From a virus (lineage: Duplodnaviria; Caudoviricetes), in the IMG/VR virus record IMGVR_UViG_2974637922_000001, positions 64,001 to 128,000 of that record: a stretch of DNA of 64,000 bases, one strand, 5' to 3'. This document shows, piece after piece, positions 2 through 59,133 of this stretch. Position numbers and translations under genes: made by a program. The stretch's first letter is position 1. Each line of letters opens with the position of its first letter. The notes below the pieces were generated by a model. The model was given only the letters and a program-made list of their open reading frames with translations, was not told the DNA's origin and did not search any database.

Positions 2-3000
2 CCTCCTACTTTGTTTGAGACAGTATCTGATATCTTTGTCAATACTATTTCAGATAAGGTTTCTGTTGGTTCTAGTATTACTGTTGGTCTTGGCACTCTA
101 TCGGAGGATATGGAAGTTATCAACATCTTCCCTATTAATAAGGCACTTCGGGTTAAGAGACCAGTAGGTTATGGTTTCACACACCCAATTGGTGATGCTG
201 TTAACATTGCTCCTAATTACTTTGATATTAAGAAGAATGTAGATTCATTCCCGTCTGAGATTGATGTTGAGTACTACTTCAACCCACACCAAACAGTGGC
301 AGTTGGATTGGAGACTGGTGTAAGTGTTGGTTTGGTGTATTCAATTGGTACTATCGATAAGAATATCTCAGTACAGACTCAAAGAATATATGCACCATCC
401 CATGGTTTCAGAACTGGTGAGGAGATTACTTTTGAGAAGAATGATACTGATACTGCATTAGTTGTAACAGACGGTAGTACTGTATATACACTACCTGGTG
501 TAGGTAATACAAGTAACGCATATGTTGTATCACTATCCAAAAACTATATTGGTATTAGAACAGTAACAGATGGTCCTGATCTATTCTTCTCTACTGATGG
601 TTCCGATTCTCCTCTATATTCTATTAAGACTAATCGTTTCGCTGAGACTGCATTAGTAGATAGAATTCAGGCAGAAGTTAAAACGAAAACGGATCATAGG
701 TTGGGGAATGACGATCAGATATTTACTGATGTTATTTCTTCTGGAAAATCAGGTGTAGGTACTAACCCCAACATCAAACTTGAGTTCGATGATTCATCAC
801 AATCACTTATTGTAGATCCATACTTCACACAACCTAGTGATATTGATACGGTTAATAACCTAATTAATATCAATAACCACGGTTATACTAATGGGGATAT
901 TGTTCTATATCAAAACTATGGAAGTTCTATTGGTGGTTTAACAACTCATCACAAATATTACACTATTCCCTTTGATAGGGATAAGTTCTATGTTGCTGAA
1001 ACATTTGTTGATGTAAGACCCGGAACTAAACTACCTGTGAATCTAACTTCTGTTGGTATTGGTTCCCATAAGTTCTCCAAGGTCAATCCACCACTACTCA
1101 TCACTAATAATAATGATATTGAGTTTGATGTGTCATCACCAACTCTATTTGGTAAAACACTAGAATTCTTCTTTGATCGGACTCTAACTGAAATATTTGA
1201 TAATAACAGTATAGACAATGTATTTGTTGTTTCTGGTGTATCTACTGAGGGATATGAGGATGCTAGGAAGTCTATTAGATACTCTGATAACAATCCAGAT
1301 GTATTCTTCTATGGTATTACTGAAGGTGGTTATATTTCCACTGCAGATACTGAAGTATCTAGAAACAACTCTATTAGATATGAGGCAAGTGAGTACGCAA
1401 TTGAAGGTAGAGTAACCGTTATAGACGATAGCACCTTTACCTATACACTCAATACTATTCCCGAGAAGCCACTATACACTAATCCTGATACACAACTCTC
1501 ATACAAGACTTCCTCTAGTACTGCTCTAGGTGGTGTTGGTAGATTGAATATCATCTTCAGTGGTAATAACTTCCCAGCTCTACCTGAGTTTGAGGGTATT
1601 CAAACTGAGTATGGGCAGAACGCAACTATCAGAGCAGAGTCTGATGATATTGGAACACTTGCTTCCTTCAGAATCCAGAACGCTGGTTGGGATTACTCCG
1701 CTGATAATACACTTCGCCCCTTTGGTGTTATTCAACCAACCATTAGATTTGATAATAGTGACTTTGTTACTGAGGTTACTGTTCTTGATGGTGGTAATGG
1801 ATATCAGAACCCCCCTAATGCTGTTCTAGTAGACTCTGTAACAAGAGAAGTAGTAGATAATGGATCTATCATCCTAGAGGTACAATCATCCACCATCACA
1901 GATGTTATTGTTGAGGTTGCTCCTTCTGGTTTATCCAAGGATCTCCAAGAACTATGGACTGTCAATAATAGTAATGGTATTCCTATCCTACTAATTGGTA
2001 ACATTGATAATGTTGCTGGTGTAGTTACATATACAGTACAGACTCCTATTGAGGGTTATGCAACACCACCATTCTCAGTTGGTGATAGAGTATTTGTTGA
2101 GAATATTCTAGTAGATCAAGATGCTCCCCCCTCTAAACTCAATTCTGGTGATTATGGGTATCAGTTCTTGGAAGTTGTTGCCGTAACACCAACAAACCCA
2201 ATCACTATTGGTATTCAGTATCCTGAAGAAGCTATTGGTAACCTAGGTTATGGTGTTACTTTCCAACAGGCTTTCTCTGGTATTGTTAACGAGGATATCT
2301 ATCCTAAGTTTGCAGTACAACAGACAACTGCAGTCTTCCTAGAGGGTGAGAGACTTTCTATCTTTGATTCCTTTGGTAATCTTGATGAGACTGACCTAGT
2401 TGTGGAAGAGTCCAACACTAGTTTCTTTAAAGTTACTGGAAACTATGATTTATTGGTTGGTGATGTACTCAAGGGTAACAATAGTGGTGTTATTTTAACT
2501 GTTACTGAAATTGACAGTAGTAGTTGTAGATATCTAGTTGATTCTATCTCCAGAATCAACACTGGTTGGAACGATAAGACAGGTTTCCTTAATGAGGAGA
2601 CACAGAACCTACCAGATAACGATTACTATCAGAATCTATCTTACTCCATTAAGAGTACAATTAACTTCGAGGAACTTATCAACCCAGTCAATAGATTGGT
2701 ACATCCTTCTGGTCTAAAGAACTTCTCTGATACCAAGATTGAGTCCATTGGTGATATTGGTGTTGGTAGTAGTGAGAGCTCTGAGTCAACAGTTACTATT
2801 GACTTTATTGGTCTAACTGATATAGCAGAAACTCCACTGAGAGTTGATCGCATCAATGTATTCGACTTGGGTTGGGATGCCAATGTCAATAACAACAGAT
2901 CTAACGCCATTAGACTTCAGAGTAGAACTCCTAACAAGAGACTAACTGACTATATCGAAGTTCGTACTAACAGAGTATTGATGCATGACGACATCAGTAA

Positions 3001-6000
3001 CGAGTTTATTGACTCAGATAACGCCTCTTCCAAGTCCCCCTATAGTGAGTTCAATATTATCACTGGTGAGTATACCAGAGGATTGGTTCAGGCAAGAAAT
3101 CCCTTCACCGATCAAGTTCAATTCACTGAGATTATTGTTTTATCAGTTGATAACAGTGCCTTCACTTTACAGAAGGCGAGTATCTCTGATAATGATCTTG
3201 GTTATGGTATCTTTGAGGGTAGATCTTTAGCTAGTAGTGAATATCAAATGAGATTCACTCCCTTCAACACAGATGATTTTGATATTGACCTAAAACTACT
3301 ATCCCATAAGTTTATCTTTAGTGGTGAGTCAGCTGAAGAGATTGGATATGTAAACCTAGCCGGTAATACACTATCTACACCAGACGCTGCTAGTACTCAA
3401 ATATATGGAGCTAGTAATAGTAATAATAGAGCAGTTGTTGTTCACGCAAATATTACCACAATTGATGGTCTTCTTTATTACTATGAGATATATGCTTTTA
3501 CTGATGGTACTGATGTATACTATGCACCTTATGGTTATAGTAGTGATGTACTAAAGGGTTTCAATAGTGAGTTGGATGGTGATTTTAACGCCACACTACA
3601 AGGTGGTAAGTTGGCAATCTACTTCACTAATAATACTGGTGGTCCAGTTAGTATCACCACCAAGTCTATTGAGTTCAAGCAGTCTTTCAGTGGAACATCA
3701 CCTTATAGATTTAAGAAAAATAATGTTCCTGATACTGAAGAAAGAAGTATTATTCTAGACTCAGTATCCACTGCGGGTGTTAGTACACAAACCACTGAGG
3801 TATTCAGATACGACACCACTCTATTCCAGAGTGTTAGATCTATCGTTCATATCTCTGGTACGGATGTTGGTGCCATTCATCAGGTAATGACTATCAATAG
3901 TGATGGTTCTACTTATTGTGAAGTGTATCCTTTCATTACTGAGGGTGATGAGGTAGATTCTACTTCTGGTATTGGTACCTTTGGTTCATCAATTGATGGA
4001 ACTGATATGGTTCTAACTTTCTATCCAGATGCAGCTATTGGAAGTCAGGCACTAACTCTCACCTCCTATAACGAAACATTCTATAGAGAATTGGATGAAG
4101 TTAACTACACATTCGGTAGACCATTAGTTTATTCTGAGAGTGAGGAGAACTACTACCTAGAGAGGTATATTGCTCCTCTAGGTTTGAGAAACAACCTACT
4201 TAGATTCCCTCTGACATACGAAGGTATTCCCATCTATGAGAAGGCATTTGATCCAGCAACTACAATTAGCATAAACAACGGTAATTTGACATTGTTCAAC
4301 ATTACTGAGCACTTCTTTAGTCCAGCTGAAGAACTATATTACCTACCAGATACAACTTTAGCTAACAACCTCAAATCTCCTATCGAGATTCAACCAGTTG
4401 TTGATTATAGAGGTATAACAACTTCTACAATGCCTGACAGAGTGTATGCCATCAAGAGGGATCTAAATGTATTCCAACTAGCACCAACTGCATCTGATGC
4501 ACTTGCTGGTCAAGCAATTGTTATCACTGGGTTTGGTACTGGTATTTCCCATAGATTGGGTATGATGAAGAAGCTAGAGAAGACTATCATTACCATTGAT
4601 GGTGTTATCCAGTCTCCTATTACTAGCGCACTCAAAACATTCAATCTAGATGCACCACTAGGTTTTGATGACGAATATGCAGTTCTAACTGGTATTGGTA
4701 CTATTCGTGTTGGTGATCTATTTCTAATTGATGAGGAGTACTTAAAGATTGATAATGTTGGATTATCTACATCACAGACTGGTCCTATTAGTAATACTGG
4801 TACTATTCCTCTAATTGAAATTAGTAGAGGTGTTGTTGGTTCTTCCGCAACTAGTCATACTAGTGGTTCTGATCTCGATCTATACAGAGGTAGCTTCAAT
4901 ATTGTTGAGAGTGACGTTGTATTCACCGAAGCACCTGCTGGTAGGGGTGAGATTAATATCAATGAGTCCAACCTAGTACAGGTTAACTCATCATTCCAAG
5001 GTAGAACATTCCTACAGAGAGAGTATGATCAGATTGCACTATTTGATGATATCAGTGATTTGTTCAATGGTTCAGATTATGAGTTCAACATTACTTCCGC
5101 TGGTAGTACTATTGGTGAGATTGAGAATGGTTCTGGTGTTCTAACCATCAACGATATCTACCAAACTCCAACTACCGATAACAACGCAGGTAACAACTAT
5201 TTCTATAGTTATGGAGCACAAACTGGTATCAATACTCTAACCTTTACTGGTATTACTTCCACTAATGGTCAGAGAGTTGAGTCTAGATTTGATATCAATC
5301 AGAACCAGATTCCTCGCGGTGGTGTTATCGTATCACTAGGTTCTACACCTGGTTTGGGATACGCCCCACTCTATGGAGCAAAGATAACTCCAGTAGTTAC
5401 TGGTGGTGTTATTACTGATATTGTATCGACCAATAGAGTTGGTTTTACAACTGATGTTCTTTGGGCAGACTATGATAACGAAACTGGTGACTTGGTTGTT
5501 TCTGGTATTGGATCGGCACTAACCACACAGTTCAACATCACAGATGCCGACTATCGTAACACCTCCGGCGTCCTAATTATCACGAGCGCAACTTCTCTAA
5601 TATCTGCTGGTATCAACCCAGGTGATATTATGTATCTGAGAGGTATGGACTTCTCCTGTACTTCAGGTGGAGCACCTGCCACACTTACATACCCAGACCA
5701 AGACCCAGTATACGCTGTGGATAGGATTGTAGATGAATTTAGGTTCTCAGTGAACGCTGGAATATCTACTATTCCACATACTTATGTTTCTGGTGGTACC
5801 TGGCAAAAGTATTCACCATTCCAGTTTGGAAGGGAACAGATTAACCCCAAACAGGTTTATCTAAATGGTTTGGAGTTTGATTGTACCAATAGTCCATTCA
5901 TCACTACCAATATCTTCCCTGATAGTTTCGAGTCAGCATCTTTTGTTACTCGTGATGATGATGCACACTTCAGACTAAACGTTGGTATCGCAAGTTTCAC

Positions 6001-53957: not shown

Positions 53958-54010
53958 TGGGGGGTCCTGTCACAAAACAGGGTTGCCCCCTTTTTGGTGC
54001 ATGTTATAAT
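53958..54010 (+). promoter_or_regulatory. Terminator-like hairpin overlapping a sigma70 promoter for the gp43 operon
   Basis: GGGGG..CCTG/CAGG..CCCCC+T5; TTGCCC (53983-88) and TGtTATAAT (54002-10). Confidence 0.55.
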
Positions 54011-54025
54011 ATAGTATAAACTAAA

Positions 54026-54412
54026 ATGAACAATGATTATGATAGGGAACTTCCTTCCCCAACCGGATCTACGGGGGCAGTTGAACTAATGATTGAATCT
54101 ATTGACTTGATGAGCAACAATGATCCAGTAGTAAAACTAGTTCTACTGAAGAATAATGAAACTATTATTGCTGAGGTTCGTGAGAGTATCGATGGAAGTA
54201 GTGTTCAGCTCATTGATCCTCGTGTAGTTCTACTACAGGCAGCAAGACCATCTGATGACGGACAGACTACAACAACTGCCATCTCATATACCGACTGGTT
54301 ACCTTTGTCTGAGAGTAGAAACTTCACTATTGATGGTGATTATGTGGTCCTTATCACTGATCCCATTGAAAGTTTAGTACAAAGTTATACACAGGCACGA
54401 CAAAATGGATGA
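54026..54412 (+). CDS. Hypothetical protein, putative Sm-like fold (true start may be downstream)
   Basis: 'VKLVLLKNNETIIAEV.E', 'L.DP', 'WLPLS', 'DP...L...Y'. Confidence 0.65.
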   Translation: MNNDYDRELPSPTGSTGAVELMIESIDLMSNNDPVVKLVLLKNNETIIAEVRESIDGSSVQLIDPRVVLLQAARPSDDGQTTTTAISYTDWLPLSESRNFTIDGDYVVLITDPIESLVQSYTQARQNG

Positions 54413-54686
54413 AACTATTAGAGTATTGGTCTTGACCAATGGAAAAGTCCTTATCAGTAAGATCGAAGAGATAGGAGGTGCTGATATCGGGGAGCCAGAC
54501 TGCCGTCTAACCGACCCAGTATGGTATAATGATGAGGTGGAGGAAATGACCGAAGGGTTCAAACGCTTTCCTGGTAAGGGGATCACACCCGATACCAAGT
54601 TGGCCATCTCTTCTGTCAATATCTTGACTCTGGTTACCCCAGATAATAAACTCCTCAGTGAATACCTCGTGTTTATTAGTGATTAA
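54405..54686 (+). CDS. Hypothetical protein, putative Sm-like fold
   Basis: 'LIS.IEE...ADIGEPDC.L..P', 'ILTLV.P...L...Y'; immediately upstream of gp43. Confidence 0.7.
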   Translation: MDETIRVLVLTNGKVLISKIEEIGGADIGEPDCRLTDPVWYNDEVEEMTEGFKRFPGKGITPDTKLAISSVNILTLVTPDNKLLSEYLVFISD

Positions 54687-56161
54687 TGTCTAACAAGTTC
54701 TACACCAATGTTCAGCTTTATGGTAACAACATCCTCCTACGCGGGTATGAGAACGGAGAGAAGTTCCACACTAGGGAACAATACTCCCCTACACTATATG
54801 TGAGTTCCAAGAAACCCAGTAAGTGGAAAACACTTACTGGTGAGAATGTTCAACCAGTGAAGCCCGGATCTATTAGAGATTGTAGGGATTTTATCAAGAA
54901 GTATAAAGATGTAGAGAACTTTAATGTGTTTGGTAATGAGAGGTTTGCCTTTCAATACATTGCAGACAACTATCCTGGGGAGATTGAATATGATCCCCAG
55001 TTGATTAATATCTTGAGTTTGGATATTGAGGTTGAGTCTGAACATGGTTTCCCAGATCCAGAGTCTGCTAATGAGGAAGTACTACTCATTACTATTCAGG
55101 ACTATGTTACCAAACAAATCATTACTTGGGGTCAGATAAAGCATGGGGAGTTTGATAACCAACAGGATAATGTAGATTTCCGTCCCTGTGAGAGTGAGTA
55201 TCACCTACTGAGTGCCTTTATTCAGTGGTGGCAACAGAACCCACCTGATGTTATCACTGGGTGGAACATTGACTATTATGATATTCCATACCTCGTCAGA
55301 CGCATGAAGAGAGTGTTGGGTGATAAACTAGCAAGCACTATCTCCCCTTGGAAGTTCGTAACAGACGAAGAGCACTTCTTCAAAGGTATGAACAAACTAT
55401 ACTACAATATCGCTGGTATCACCCAACTAGACTACCTAGTTCTATACACTAAGTTCACATATACCAACCAAGAGTCATACAGACTAGACCATATTGCTAA
55501 CGTGGAGTTGGGTCAGAAGAAGTTAGACCACTCTGAGTTTGAAACCTTCAAAGACTTCTATCGCAAAGGTTGGCAGAAGTTTGTAGAATACAACATTGTT
55601 GACGTGGAACTAGTTGACAGACTGGAAGAGAAGTTGAAACTCATTGATCTTGCCATCACTATGGCGTTTGATGCTAAGGTGAACTTCCAGGATGTATTCT
55701 CACAGGTGAGACTATGGGATACTATTATCTACAACTATCTCAGAGATAGGAACATTGTCATCCCTCAGAAGGAACAAACCAGTAAGAGTGAGAAGTTTGC
55801 TGGAGCATATGTGAAAGAACCTAAACCAGGTCTATATGACTGGGTGGTGTCCTTTGACCTTAACTCCCTGTATCCTCACCTACTGATGCAATACAACATC
55901 TCCCCAGAAACTCTGATGGAAGAGAGATGTCCTAATATCTCCATTGAGAAGGTATTGAATGAGGAAGTGACCTTTGAGATGTATAAAGACTACGCTGTTT
56001 GTCCCAATGGTGCAATGTATCGCAAAGATGTGCGTGGATTTCTCCCAACTCTGATGGAGAAGATGTATGATGAAAGAAAGGCATTCAAAAAGAAGATGCT
56101 GAAGTCCAAACAAATCCTCGTTGATATCGAGGCTGAAATGAAAAGAAGAGGTGTATTATGA
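54686..56161 (+). CDS. g43: DNA polymerase gp43, N-terminal half (gp43A: exonuclease, palm motif A, first fingers helix)
   Basis: ExoI 'LDIEVE', ExoII 'TGWNIDYYDIPYL', ExoIII 'YNIVDV', motif A 'SFDLNSLYP'; ends at TGA after 'RK.FKKKML'. Confidence 0.93.
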   Translation: MSNKFYTNVQLYGNNILLRGYENGEKFHTREQYSPTLYVSSKKPSKWKTLTGENVQPVKPGSIRDCRDFIKKYKDVENFNVFGNERFAFQYIADNYPGEIEYDPQLINILSLDIEVESEHGFPDPESANEEVLLITIQDYVTKQIITWGQIKHGEFDNQQDNVDFRPCESEYHLLSAFIQWWQQNPPDVITGWNIDYYDIPYLVRRMKRVLGDKLASTISPWKFVTDEEHFFKGMNKLYYNIAGITQLDYLVLYTKFTYTNQESYRLDHIANVELGQKKLDHSEFETFKDFYRKGWQKFVEYNIVDVELVDRLEEKLKLIDLAITMAFDAKVNFQDVFSQVRLWDTIIYNYLRDRNIVIPQKEQTSKSEKFAGAYVKEPKPGLYDWVVSFDLNSLYPHLLMQYNISPETLMEERCPNISIEKVLNEEVTFEMYKDYAVCPNGAMYRKDVRGFLPTLMEKMYDERKAFKKKMLKSKQILVDIEAEMKRRGVL

Positions 56162-56316
56162 GTTTTCGTCACAAAACATATGGTGGTCTAGTTCATTATG
56201 ACCACAATGATAAGATTATCGTCATTGAACGTCGATTGAATCCAATGCAACATCACGCTATGCTTGTGAGTAAGTTGAAGGAAGAGTATCCAGAGTATCA
56301 AGTAGTTACTGGATAG
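56158..56316 (+). CDS. 52-aa ORF between the gp43 halves (not in the ORF track)
   Basis: MSFRHKTYGGLVHYDHNDKIIVIERRLNPMQHHAMLVSKLKEEYPEYQVVTG; ATGA overlap with the gp43A stop; GAGGTG SD. Confidence 0.65.
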   Translation: MSFRHKTYGGLVHYDHNDKIIVIERRLNPMQHHAMLVSKLKEEYPEYQVVTG

Positions 56317-56531
56317 TGAGTGGTTTAGTTGCTGAGATTATGCAAGTCGTTACTATGATTACTATGCTATTCAATATGTGCAATAGTAATGAGTTCAACA
56401 GACAAGCATGTATGAAAGACTGGGATACTTGGTTATTACCTGAGATATCCCGTGCGTGGCAAATTAAAACAGGTCAGGAAGCCCCTTACCAAAACGAGGA
56501 AGATGTGGTAGAATGGCACCAACAGCAGTGA
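56316..56531 (+). CDS. 71-aa ORF between the gp43 halves
   Basis: TAGTG overlap with the previous ORF; hydrophobic N-terminus, 'C..DW..WL.PEI.RAW'. Confidence 0.6.
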   Translation: MSGLVAEIMQVVTMITMLFNMCNSNEFNRQACMKDWDTWLLPEISRAWQIKTGQEAPYQNEEDVVEWHQQQ

Positions 56532-56532
56532 G

Positions 56533-57702
56533 GTGTTTATCGGTTATCTTATTGGTGGTTCGAGTGAAGGACCCGATGAGGAGATTGTACAATCAGATAG
56601 TGACTATTCTAAACTATCTGATAAGCAACTGCAATACCTAAGAGCACAAACCATAAAGGATATCGCTAAGTTTTATAACTTCCAGCAAGTAAGGAAAATT
56701 ACCCTAAACTCCGCTTATGGTGCTTTGGGTAACCAATACTTCAGATACTACAAACTGGCGAACGCGGAGGCAGTGACCTTCTCTGGTCAGTTAAGTATCC
56801 GTTGGATTGAGAATAAGATGAATGGATTCATCAATGAGATTCTAAAAACAGAGGGTAAGGATTATGTGATCGCCTCTGATACTGACTCTATCTACATTAA
56901 CTTTGGTGATGTGGTAGATAAGTTCTTGAAGAAGTTTGATGGTGATAAGGAGAAGACTGTATCAATGGTAGATAAGATCTGTAAGGATCAACTAGAACCC
57001 TTCATTGATAAGTGCTATTCTCAGTTGGGTGAGTATGTGAATGCATACGAACAGAAGATGCAGATGAAGAGAGAGAATATTGCAGATAGGGGTATATGGA
57101 CAGCGAAGAAGAGATATATCCTGAACGTGTGGGATAGTGAAGGTGTTCGTTATGAGGAACCTAAACTGAAGATGATGGGTATTGAGGCTGTGAAGTCATC
57201 TACACCTGCCCCTTGTAGAACTATGATCAAGGATGCTCTCCGTATTATCATTGAGAAATCTGAGGATGAAGTCATTGACTACATTGATGATTGTAGGAAG
57301 AAGTTCAAACAGATGAAACCAGAGGAGATCGCGTTTCCTCGTTCCGTTAGTGATATGATCAAGTTTCGTTCTGGGACAACAATATATGCTAAGAGTACTC
57401 CTATGCATGTGAGGGGGGCGTTACTATTCAATCATCACATTAAGAAGGGTGGGTTGGAGAACAAGTATTCTCTCATCAATAGTGGTGAGAAGATCAAGTT
57501 CTGCTACCTCAAGATTCCTAATCTAATTGGTGAGAATGTTATCTCATTCATCTCCGACTTTCCTAGGGAACTTAAGTTGGAGAAGTATGTTGATTATGAT
57601 ACCCAATTCAATAAAGCATTCCTAGATCCACTCAAGATCATCTTGGATGCTATTGGTTGGAACTGTGAGAAGCAGATGTCCTTGGAGTCATTTTTTACCT
57701 GA
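56533..57702 (+). CDS. g43: DNA polymerase gp43, C-terminal half (gp43B: second fingers helix, palm, thumb)
   Basis: Motif B 'KITLNSAYG', motif C 'SDTDSIY', 'KKRY', clamp-binding tail 'SLESFF'. Confidence 0.93.
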   Translation: MFIGYLIGGSSEGPDEEIVQSDSDYSKLSDKQLQYLRAQTIKDIAKFYNFQQVRKITLNSAYGALGNQYFRYYKLANAEAVTFSGQLSIRWIENKMNGFINEILKTEGKDYVIASDTDSIYINFGDVVDKFLKKFDGDKEKTVSMVDKICKDQLEPFIDKCYSQLGEYVNAYEQKMQMKRENIADRGIWTAKKRYILNVWDSEGVRYEEPKLKMMGIEAVKSSTPAPCRTMIKDALRIIIEKSEDEVIDYIDDCRKKFKQMKPEEIAFPRSVSDMIKFRSGTTIYAKSTPMHVRGALLFNHHIKKGGLENKYSLINSGEKIKFCYLKIPNLIGENVISFISDFPRELKLEKYVDYDTQFNKAFLDPLKIILDAIGWNCEKQMSLESFFT

Positions 57703-57730
57703 TATATAAAACCCCCAGAGGAGATCACCA

Positions 57731-57889
57731 ATGGAAAAACAAAATCTAGCGATGGATCTATTCATCGAGTCTGTAATCAAACCAGACAGTGACCTTAGGG
57801 GTCAAGCATCAGAACAGGGTTGTCTAGAAGAACTATTGCAAATCCGTGATGATGTGATAAAATATCTTTATAACGAGAGGAAAAACTAG
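57731..57889 (+). CDS. 52-aa conserved hypothetical protein (not in the ORF track)
   Basis: MEKQNLAMDLFIESVIKPDSDLRGQASEQGCLEELLQIRDDVIKYLYNERKN; GAGGAG SD. Confidence 0.65.
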   Translation: MEKQNLAMDLFIESVIKPDSDLRGQASEQGCLEELLQIRDDVIKYLYNERKN

Positions 57890-57892
57890 TTT

Positions 57893-58126
57893 ATGGCGTT
57901 ATCCCAATCAGTGGAGAATTCCCTCAGGGAGGCAAGTTCGTCCCTGAGGAATGCTCTAGCTTTTGCTGCCAGACAGGAGAGATCACATACCTGTCAGCAT
58001 ATTGCTAAAGTATTAAACGATATTGATCTTATTCAGAGAACGGATGAGATGTTTGATACCCTTGATAGTATCAAGGATGGTAAGGGTGGTAGCAACCCAT
58101 TTGGTAAATTTGGTTTTGATGAATAA
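57893..58126 (+). CDS. Hypothetical helical protein
   Basis: 'MALS.SV..SL.EA...LRNALAFAARQE'; coupled to uvsX. Confidence 0.7.
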   Translation: MALSQSVENSLREASSSLRNALAFAARQERSHTCQHIAKVLNDIDLIQRTDEMFDTLDSIKDGKGGSNPFGKFGFDE

Positions 58127-59133
58127 TGGATTTCTTAAAGGATATTGTAAATGAAATTGGTGGCGACTTCACTCAGATTGCCTCAGAGATTGAAGAAAAC
58201 GAAACATACGTGGACACTGGTTCGTTCATCTTTAATGCTCTTGTATCTGGGTCTATCTATGGTGGTGTATCTGGTAACAAGATTACTGCAATTGCTGGGG
58301 AAAGTTCTACTGGAAAGACTTTCTTCTCACTCGCCGTGGTCAAGAACTTCTTGGATACTAATCCCGATGCATATTGCCTTTATTTTGATACTGAAGCTGC
58401 AATCAATAGAAACCTTCTTGAGTCACGAGGTATTGACCTTAAGCGGTTGGTTGTCGTCAATGTCGTTACAGTAGAAGAGTTTAGGATGAAGGCACTTAAG
58501 TGTGTCGATATCTACCAGAAGAAACCAGAAGACGAACGCAAACCTTGTATGTTTGTCCTAGATTCTCTGGGTATGTTGTCTACAGAGAAAGAGATCAATG
58601 ATGCTCTGAATGACAAGAACGTTCGTGATATGACTAAATCACAACTCATCAAAGGGGCTTTCAGGATGTTGACCTTGAAACTAGGTCAGGCTAAGATCCC
58701 AATGATTGTTACTAACCACACCTATGATGTGATTGGTGCCTATGTTCCTACTAAGGAAATGGGTGGTGGTTCAGGTCTCAAGTATGCCGCCTCTACTATT
58801 ATTCACCTCACTAAGAAGAAAGAGAAAGACGGTAAGGATGTTATTGGTAACATTATCAAGTGTAAGACAGCTAAGTCCAGACTCTCCAAAGAGAATACAG
58901 ACGTAGGTGTTAGACTATTCTATGATGAACGGGGTTTGGATAAGTACTATGGTCTCCTAGAACTTGGTGAGCTTGGTGGTATGTGGAAGAACGTAGCTGG
59001 TCGTTATGACTTGGGTGATGGTAAGAAGATCTACGCTAAAGAGATACTAAAGGATCCAGAGAAGTACTTCACCGAAGAAGTTATGGAGAAACTAGATGTT
59101 GTTGCTAGGGGAACATTCTCATATGGGTCATAA
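58126..59133 (+). CDS. uvsX: RecA-like recombinase UvsX
   Basis: 'AGESSTGKT', 'YFDTE', 'LDSLG', 'TNHTY', 'MGGGSGLKY'. Confidence 0.95.
   Translation: MDFLKDIVNEIGGDFTQIASEIEENETYVDTGSFIFNALVSGSIYGGVSGNKITAIAGESSTGKTFFSLAVVKNFLDTNPDAYCLYFDTEAAINRNLLESRGIDLKRLVVVNVVTVEEFRMKALKCVDIYQKKPEDERKPCMFVLDSLGMLSTEKEINDALNDKNVRDMTKSQLIKGAFRMLTLKLGQAKIPMIVTNHTYDVIGAYVPTKEMGGGSGLKYAASTIIHLTKKKEKDGKDVIGNIIKCKTAKSRLSKENTDVGVRLFYDERGLDKYYGLLELGELGGMWKNVAGRYDLGDGKKIYAKEILKDPEKYFTEEVMEKLDVVARGTFSYGS

Follow-up and report, generated by a model that had tools for sequence, protein, structure and literature searches.

Introduction

The closest described systems to the locus considered here are the split gene 43 loci of Aeromonas phages, in which the T4-type family-B DNA polymerase (gp43) is encoded in two parts. 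In phage 44RR2.8t, 43A (498 amino acids, aa) and 43B (391 aa) lie 49 nucleotides (nt) apart, and in phage 25 a free-standing homing endonuclease gene stands between 43A and a 43B that carries a group IA2 intron (GenBank annotation). The 43A and 43B products of Aeromonas phages have been reported to co-purify and to have polymerase activity, and the spacer in this split may be older than the endonuclease (PMC2988022). Two further cases associated with homing endonucleases are nrdA of phage Aeh1 (mobE) and the topoisomerase genes 39/60 of T4 (mobA); in both, a region of functional importance in an essential enzyme gene is where the split falls, and the enzyme is put together again from the two products (PMC2988022). 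Here we consider a 64,000-nt stretch (the window, in whose positions all coordinates are given unless another sequence is named) of the ~197-kb virus record IMGVR_UViG_2974637922_000001, a Synechococcus myovirus of the ACG-2014f type, in which gp43 is likewise split into two genes, termed gp43A and gp43B.

The facts on Aeromonas phages were taken from the review PMC2988022 and from GenBank. In the literature searched, no paper on a split cyanophage gp43 was found, and the genome papers on S-H34/S-N03-type phages and on S-CREM2, which have the same break, leave the split unmentioned. This kind of split is known from Aeromonas phages and the present instance is already annotated in GenBank. What is new is its breadth and polyphyly, the graded contents of the gap, the apparent use of polymerase codons as a Shine-Dalgarno sequence, the candidate AUC/AUU start codon and an island of high diversity beside the gap.

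A replicative polymerase in two cistrons

We conclude that the window very probably encodes a genuine two-cistron T4-type family-B replicative polymerase, whose halves would be made separately and would reassemble. What was shown directly is the anatomy of the locus, its recurrence across independent genomes, purifying selection acting on gp43A and gp43B, and the pattern that emerges when relatives are compared. Four co-oriented open reading frames (ORFs) abut at the polymerase locus, and the gap from gp43A to gp43B measures 371 nt (56162-56532). The original prediction had described a gp43 split into ORFs of 491 and 389 aa with two ORFs in a gap of this length, and its coordinates proved exact. 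The features of the locus are as follows.

54686-56161, + strand: gp43A, 491 aa; N-terminal domain, 3'-5' exonuclease, palm motif A and first fingers helix; C-terminus ...RRGVL-stop
56148-56160, + strand: ORF1 initiation region, within the last gp43A codons; GAGG (part of the Arg-Arg-Gly, or RRG, codons), 6-nt spacer, ATG; first copy of a near-direct repeat
56158-56316, + strand: ORF1, 52 aa; its ATG overlaps the gp43A TGA (ATGA); phrog_3538
56316-56531, + strand: ORF2, 71 aa; its GTG overlaps the ORF1 TAG (TAGTG); hydrophobic N-terminus, Trp-rich C-terminal part; phrog_3571/703
56530-56541, + strand: gp43B initiation region; GAGG, 5-nt spacer, ATC (56539); second copy of the near-direct repeat
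56533-57702, + strand: gp43B, 389 aa; second fingers helix, motifs B and C, KKRY, thumb, C-terminal ...SLESFFT
56535-56780, + strand: high-diversity island at the 5' end of gp43B; its left end lies exactly at the right edge of the gap

The pair gp43A/gp43B is the only family-B polymerase in the record of 196,842 bases, which is estimated to be 86% complete. In isolate C12 the annotated gene order is gp44, gp62, RegA, Hsp20, 43A, 43B, UvsX and gp41, which is a T4-type replication module.

Pfam assigns DNA_pol_B_exo1 (E = 4.7e-25) and the first 142 positions of DNA_pol_B to gp43A, and DNA_pol_B from positions 148-254 onward to gp43B. The profile phrog_262, which represents the full-length phage polymerase, is covered at positions 7-495 by gp43A and at 499-851 by gp43B; as the two halves together cover it, no part of the enzyme is missing. 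All catalytic motifs had been described as intact, and regular-expression searches, together with an alignment of homologues for motif B, bear this out. The motifs are located as follows.

55019-55030, + strand: Exo I (LDIE), gp43A aa 112-115; regular expression
55265-55291, + strand: Exo II (N...YD.PY), gp43A aa 194-202; regular expression
55589-55603, + strand: Exo III (Y...D), gp43A aa 302-306; regular expression
55856-55876, + strand: palm motif A (D..SLYP), gp43A aa 391-397; regular expression
gp43B K55-G63, + strand: motif B (K...NS.YG); K55...N59 S60. Y62 G63 invariant in the homologue alignment
56878-56889, + strand: palm motif C (DTDS), gp43B aa 116-119; regular expression
57106-57117, + strand: KKRY, gp43B aa 192-195; regular expression

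The C-terminal end of gp43B is taken to be the clamp-binding tail.

For both halves the best matches in the PDB are RB69/T4 polymerase structures (E = 4e-80 for gp43A and 5e-67 for gp43B). Residue 475 of gp43A aligns with RB69 residue 493, and residue 26 of gp43B with RB69 residue 531, which places the break in the distal part of the fingers, at the tip (RB69 ~494-530). In RB69-type enzymes the motif A and motif C strands of the palm pack together, and the fingers consist of two long antiparallel helices. Because each half keeps one fingers helix, and because motif A resides in gp43A and motif C in gp43B, the halves should reassemble by their normal interfaces.

Each half had been thought to carry a helical extension at the break, the two forming a coiled coil that zips the polymerase together. 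The extensions stand in comparison with ordinary cyanophage gp43, where 31 aa separate the two fingers motifs (66 loci), but not in comparison with RB69, since the ~41 residues between the aligned fingers blocks here are about normal against the 37 of that enzyme. The zipper as a special device was not upheld. The tail of gp43A and the head of gp43B align with the native antiparallel fingers helices of RB69 and the palm is shared as well, so that the interface would be the ordinary intramolecular one and not an added zipper.

In the mechanism that we propose, gp43A and gp43B would be translated as two distinct chains from a single series of co-oriented genes with tight stop/start junctions. 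These are ATGA for gp43A/ORF1, TAGTG for ORF1/ORF2 and TGA-G-GTG...ATC for ORF2/gp43B, the GTG of the last lying two bases past the ORF2 TGA. The halves would then reassemble via interfaces that are normally intramolecular, namely the antiparallel pair of fingers helices and the palm to which both halves contribute. The break falls at the tip of the fingers, in a loop that is exposed to solvent. This place is structurally permissive, and T4-like phages have repeatedly broken it or passed the break on by recombination. The distance of the tip from the fingers hinge and the active site plausibly explains why it tolerates a break. A GYLIGG head, which is conserved in one subtype and is without counterpart in intact forms, might add to docking. 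AlphaFold2 models of the single chains, built from shallow alignments, were unusable, with a mean predicted local distance difference test (pLDDT) score of 51.6 for gp43B (11 sequences) and 40.3 for gp43A (8 sequences). A split family-B polymerase of this type would be a natural case of protein fragment complementation, in which the fingers tip is opened without killing a processive, proofreading polymerase.

The likeness to the Aeromonas gp43A/gp43B, to which the original prediction had drawn attention, extends to the position of the break: in a joint alignment, the fingers-tip breaks of the window and of 44RR2.8t are ~three residues apart. Both loci have two co-oriented cistrons of similar size (491 + 389 aa here, 498 + 391 there), and in both the A tail is of the form basic-Arg-Gly-hydrophobic. 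They differ in that the 49-nt spacer of 44RR2.8t is untranslated, whereas the 371 nt of the window are fully filled by two overlapping ORFs. Moreover, 44RR2.8t belongs to the Straboviridae and the window to the Kyanoviridae, with a wide separation between them on the gp43 tree, so that the breaks represent either independent events or a transferred junction. Phage 25 is split at the same place and has a gene lodged between the halves, which provides a precedent for the break as a landing site of selfish genes. In contrast to phage 25, the gap genes of the window have no nuclease domain and its 43B has no intron; an endonuclease-like gene in the gap, as in phage 25, was seen only in relatives (contigs L016 and L018/L019, and Vibrio phage PVA8). 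The splits of Aeh1 nrdA and of T4 39/60 concern other enzymes and, unlike them, the window has no endonuclease gene now, a homing origin being a matter of conjecture.

Reproducibility of the split in isolates, metagenomes and RNA libraries

Nine GenBank genomes of Synechococcus phage ACG-2014f (Atlauavirus, Kyanoviridae) show 95-97.5% identity and are colinear over 4017 nt, with zero insertions or deletions. In all nine, GenBank records two 'DNA polymerase' coding sequences with two hypothetical proteins in between. The same split is present in IMG/VR contig L015. Among marine metagenome sequences, one contig matches 56136-56528 with 0 differences, and a second, ~92% identical, covers 55994-56750 gap-free and spans the interval 56100-56600 that had been singled out as a place where a misassembly might lie. 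The identical layout in isolates, L015 and metagenomes, together with the finding that the record has no second family-B polymerase, establishes that the split is genuine.

These data leave little room for a decaying pseudogene or for an assembly or sequencing artefact, which we regard as extremely improbable. The three different starts given to gp43B in GenBank could, taken alone, suggest a damaged gene. However, nine cultured isolates and independent metagenomes share one and the same architecture, there is no other family-B polymerase in the record, purifying selection is strong, all motifs are intact, and isolated phages, namely S-H34/S-N03, S-CREM2 and Vibrio PVA8, are broken at this point too. 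For practical purposes, the misassembly and pseudogene readings are excluded.

Within gp43A, window positions 55486-56086 show the same 6-13 substitutions per 100 nt against all nine isolates, which are near-identical to each other there. This interval is a separate mosaic block that is private to the window genome.

A single-chain polymerase might still be produced if the interruption were removed as a group I intron or an intein, bypassed by the ribosome, or read via frameshifting or readthrough. The original prediction had seen neither intron nor intein, and our searches agree. With Rfam, nothing relevant was found in 54000-58500 at E up to 1, the sole match being a chance snoRNA inside gp43B, and nothing was found in ten related loci at E ≤ 0.01. 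Pfam detected no intein domains in the ORFs, and the gap has stops in both the gp43A and the gp43B frames, which excludes an intein. Contigs from oligo-dT RNA libraries bridge the A/ORF1 (55928-56194) and ORF2/B (56421-56631) junctions in unspliced form, and among the public metagenome and RNA-library contigs that match the locus, no joint that skips the gap was seen.

Some features of the locus and its relatives do recall such a mechanism. A near-direct repeat, GAGGTGT(A)TTAT, is present on both sides of the gap (at 56148 and 56530), superficially like take-off and landing sites. In L015, a remnant of ORF2 and gp43B are in one frame with only a TGA between them, and Aeromonas phage 25 has a true group I intron, though it lies in 43B and away from the split. 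Against this, joining the two copies of the repeat is out of frame in the window, and the frame of gp43B relative to ORF2 is +1 in the window but 0 in L015, which argues that no recoding is conserved; on these two grounds ribosomal bypass and frameshifting were ruled out. Across split forms, moreover, the gap ranges from an overlap to ~740 nt with unrelated contents, and the minimal variants have a plain TAATG junction with a Shine-Dalgarno-like sequence 9 nt upstream. We therefore consider it very improbable that a single chain is made from this locus.

Probable initiation regions and the start codon of gp43B

In all split forms, Lys/Arg-Arg-Gly and then one or two hydrophobic residues make up the end of the A chain. 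Arg-Arg-Gly is encoded there by AGAGG, AGGGG or AGGAGGGG, located 3-9 nt before the next start codon, the spacing being 6 nt to the ORF1 start in the window and 9 nt to the gp43B start in the minimal forms. From their sequence and position, these gp43A codons appear to have a second role, as a Shine-Dalgarno sequence for the cistron that follows, which would account for the recurrence of the same tail in cyanophage and Vibrio phage splits. The near-direct repeat is best read as a duplicated initiation region, since its second copy again presents GAGG, a 5-nt spacer and ATC. A scan for promoters and terminators gave no enrichment and found no + strand terminator within the gap. We infer that the cistrons of the locus are translationally coupled.

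The GTG at 56533 is limited to the haplotype of the window and is replaced by GTT in five of the nine isolates; it is therefore not the general start of gp43B. The starts given in GenBank are inconsistent, with three different choices, including a TTG 15 nt downstream in two isolates and a TTG 192 nt downstream, inside motif B, in three. In these last three (KJ019066, KJ019152 and KJ019098; L011, L012 and L013), which have GTT in place of the GTG, the deposited gp43B lacks its first 64 codons and with them the second fingers helix (locus 2348-2540, corresponding to 56533-56725 in the window). The start 192 nt downstream is probably an annotation error; a chain begun there would make no working enzyme.

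Where the minimal forms have their ATG, the homologous codon is an ATC or ATT in several other sequences: the window, hap2 and hap3 (two of the three haplotypes found at this end of gp43B, as described below) and contigs L015, L016 and L018/L019. Each of these ATC/ATT codons is preceded, 4-7 nt upstream, by GAGG, GGAGG or AAGGAGG. In hap3, L015, L016 and L018/L019, no other canonical in-frame start was found upstream of the fingers helix. Over the first 26 gp43B codons counted from the ATC/ATT position, hap1 and hap2 differ by 11 synonymous and 3 non-synonymous codon changes, and hap2 and L015 by 8 and 0. The changes are mostly at third positions, and the synonymous excess indicates that the 26 codons evolve as coding sequence. 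On this comparative evidence, we lean slightly towards a start of gp43B at AUC/AUU in the insert-bearing variants, which in the window would be the ATC at 56539. The alternative in the window would be the haplotype-specific GTG at 56533, and the start is probably one of the two. Reinitiation after termination of ORF2 may aid the start of gp43B. The likely AUC/AUU start offers a testable case of non-canonical initiation in an essential phage gene.

Distribution and phylogeny of the fingers-tip break

To place the locus among its relatives, we collected from IMG/VR the 80 loci with the highest similarity to gp43B, determined where the A tail and the B head lie in each, and added phages from GenBank. 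Cyanophage gp43 is usually one chain, as had been stated: S-CAM7, P-SSM2 and S-T4 are among 66 intact loci in which the tip is short, with 31 aa separating the conserved fingers motifs, and RN05-S and S-B68 are also intact, with a tip of 45-46 aa that counts as long. The original prediction had proposed a survey of cyanophage gene 43 loci for the split and for variable inserts; here, 11 IMG/VR contigs have a break that coincides with that of the window, and their inserts vary. Six of them, which come from different metagenomes (L021 and L022 being near-identical), have no gap gene at all. The junctions of the split relatives are as follows.

L017 and L021-L025: minimal junction, no gap gene; A ends ...RRGIL, TAATG overlap, B begins Met-GYLIGG
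L015: diverged ORF1 (61% aa identity) and ORF2 with a 37-codon deletion
L020: ORF1 homologue and an unrelated small ORF
L018/L019: 151-aa ORF matching HNH-endonuclease PHROGs (E = 9e-60)
L016: 236-aa ORF with a helix-turn-helix (HTH) and a DUF559/Vsr-like nuclease domain
S-H34/S-N03/MA01 group: same break; ORF2 homologue, 46% identical
S-CREM2: membrane ORF; halves annotated as 'DNA polymerase subunit A/B'
Vibrio phage PVA8, L099 (ON190024.1) 1100-4767: 78-aa small ORF and an opposite-strand HNH gene; A ends ...AEMKRRGLM

The contents of the junction thus vary from nothing through ORF1 with another ORF, an ORF2 homologue or a membrane ORF to HNH-family and HTH plus DUF559/Vsr-like genes, in agreement with the earlier suggestion that the split point is a site of gene acquisition. 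The S-H34/S-N03/MA01-type phages (Makaravirus) and S-CREM2 resemble the window in the break after ...KRRGL and in a gap gene that overlaps the A stop (ATGA). They differ in having one gap gene instead of two, in a B chain that has a canonical ATG and no GYLIGG head, and in grouping on the gp43 tree with the intact S-B68 and not with ACG-2014f. In Vibrio phage PVA8 (Schizotequatrovirus) a near-identical A tail precedes a small ORF whose start overlaps it, and B has a length of 366 aa; unlike the window, PVA8 has an endonuclease gene on the opposite strand in its gap and belongs to a distant host clade.

In a phylogeny of the gp43B body, cyanophage forms with a split tip are scattered among intact ones and require at least six changes of state. 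The sister of L020, for instance, is S-CAM7, and that of S-H34 is S-B68. The approximately unbiased (AU) test rejects monophyly of the cyanophage tip-split forms (difference in log likelihood 415, p = 4e-7), for a group that was defined after the tree had been seen. Between clades, the nucleotide identity around the junction is not higher than that of the gene body. On this basis we rejected the idea that the junction moved laterally among distant clades in recent times; a transfer would be old, or only the architecture recurs. Taken together, the alignments and the tree indicate that gain, loss or recombinational movement of the fingers-tip break took place several times, and that the break collects genes.

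A polyphyletic break in abundant marine cyanomyoviruses and in a Vibrio phage would turn what was a curiosity of Aeromonas phages 44RR and 25 into a recurrent evolutionary hot spot. The series from a bare TAATG through small ORFs to endonuclease-like genes would constitute a graded natural series for the colonisation of essential genes by selfish genes. Gene 43 commonly serves as a marker of T4-like phages in phylogeny and polymerase chain reaction (PCR), and both marker surveys and automatic annotation can be misled by alleles that are split or carry an insert, as well as by the recombinant island beside the gap.

The genes in the gap

Neither ORF1 nor ORF2 has a match to a nuclease or any other domain in Pfam and PHROG, and searches of the Protein Atlas gave no usable lead on the family or fold of either. 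A pattern search of IMG/VR with ORF2 returned no relative. Since some relatives are without gap genes and others have different ones, ORF1 and ORF2 are read as small passenger genes in the break and not as parts of the enzyme.

Homologues of ORF1 occupy the same position in L015 and L020, with the same ATGA overlap with gp43A. Between the window and L015, nucleotide identity is 76% in ORF1 against 93-100% in its flanks, and the ratio of non-synonymous to synonymous substitution rates (dN/dS) of ORF1 is ~0.55. One metagenome contig matches the ends of ORF1 and not its middle 90 nt (56193-56284), which suggests a further diverged environmental ORF1 allele like that of L015. A gene of the ORF1 family, ~43-45% identical, is also found directly 3' of the DNA adenine methylase (Dam) gene, with an overlapping start, in S-H34, S-N03, MA01, MA10, ME01 and MC09 (in S-H34 at 2016-2156 of L097, MT162467.2). 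The family is therefore not tied to gp43.

ORF2 has a natural internal deletion in L015, which removes 37 of its 71 codons; full-length ORF2 would accordingly seem dispensable. The remnant (L015 3159-3263) encodes 34 aa, made up of the first 13 and the last 21 codons, and is in the frame of gp43B with a single TGA in between. A 1-nt difference after GAGGT changes the frame relation of ORF2 and gp43B in L015 with respect to the window. The conserved 3' end of ORF2 may be kept in part for the initiation region of gp43B.

A different role for the gap genes would be that of accessory subunits or assembly factors, ORF1 and/or ORF2 taking part in an A-ORF1-ORF2-B relay for stoichiometric production. 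Such a role would fit the lack of intergenic space among the four cistrons, the recurrence of ORF1 after gp43A in L015 and L020, the presence of an ORF2 homologue in the gap of the distantly related S-H34 group, and a gap that is almost invariant among ten genomes. We nevertheless judge it improbable, given the six minimal-split contigs without a gap gene, the loss of half of ORF2 in L015, the occurrence of the ORF1 family beside Dam methylase genes away from gp43, a dN/dS of ORF1 like that of out-of-frame controls, and the lack of any family or fold lead for either protein.

Several points weigh against our conclusion that the polymerase is made as two chains that reassemble, or against parts of it. 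Binding between gp43A and gp43B, and the activity of the pair, are suggested by analogy with Aeromonas phages 44RR and 25. Initiation at ATC or ATT is rare in bacteria; here such a start is proposed from comparative sequence only, and termination-reinitiation at other codons is possible. A coupling hairpin is unsupported, as two junctions of the window and one minimal junction are no stabler than shuffled sequences (z = -0.27, 0.16 and -0.38). The RNA-library contigs come from related strains and possibly derive from contaminating DNA, so that transcription across the gap is weakly shown; parts of the stretch that the RNA libraries leave uncovered are uninformative. The constraint on ORF1 is weak, its dN/dS being indistinguishable from that of the out-of-frame controls, and the translation and function of ORF1 and ORF2 are putative.

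A diversity island beside the gap

Among ten genomes the gap is near-invariant, with a nucleotide diversity (pi) of 0.004-0.007. From 56535 to ~56780, pi rises to ~0.11, against 0-0.03 in the flanks, and three haplotypes (hap1, hap2 and hap3) are present. Contig L015 has the same diversity island. Synonymous divergence (dS) within the island is 0.65-1.25 between hap1 and the others and 0.38-0.61 among hap2, hap3 and L015, while dN/dS is 0-0.16 over all haplotype pairs. The high dS and low dN/dS indicate that these are old alleles under purifying selection which were recombined into near-identical genomes, one of the breakpoints lying precisely where the gap ends on its right. The island is compatible with a hot spot of recombination or with an earlier co-conversion tract beside the insert, two origins that are indistinguishable here.

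It is tempting to extend the two-cistron polymerase to a more general picture, in which the fingers-tip break is a mobile gene-splitting module that spreads among cyanophage gp43 alleles via recombination or endonuclease-driven homing. This extension is tentative, and we consider it rather doubtful. Its parts would be two fingers helices of increased length, the RRG/Shine-Dalgarno tail, the stop/start junction and any resident gene. The island at 56535-56780, with its saturated dS, would then represent the co-conversion or recombination tract, and the AUC/AUU start of gp43B in insert-bearing variants would tune subunit stoichiometry.

A second split site

In gp43 of uncultured cyanophages, a second split site was observed ~20-25 residues past motif A. 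There, the N-terminal fragment ends in ...ELEKML or similar, and the C-terminal fragment has a new head of ~60 aa. The gaps at this site contain the following.

L029, 1616-2492: HNH ORF
L041/L057, 2056-2501: truncated HNH remnant
L048, 1470-2339: GIY-YIG-like ORF
L069, 1630-2501: unrelated 192-aa ORF

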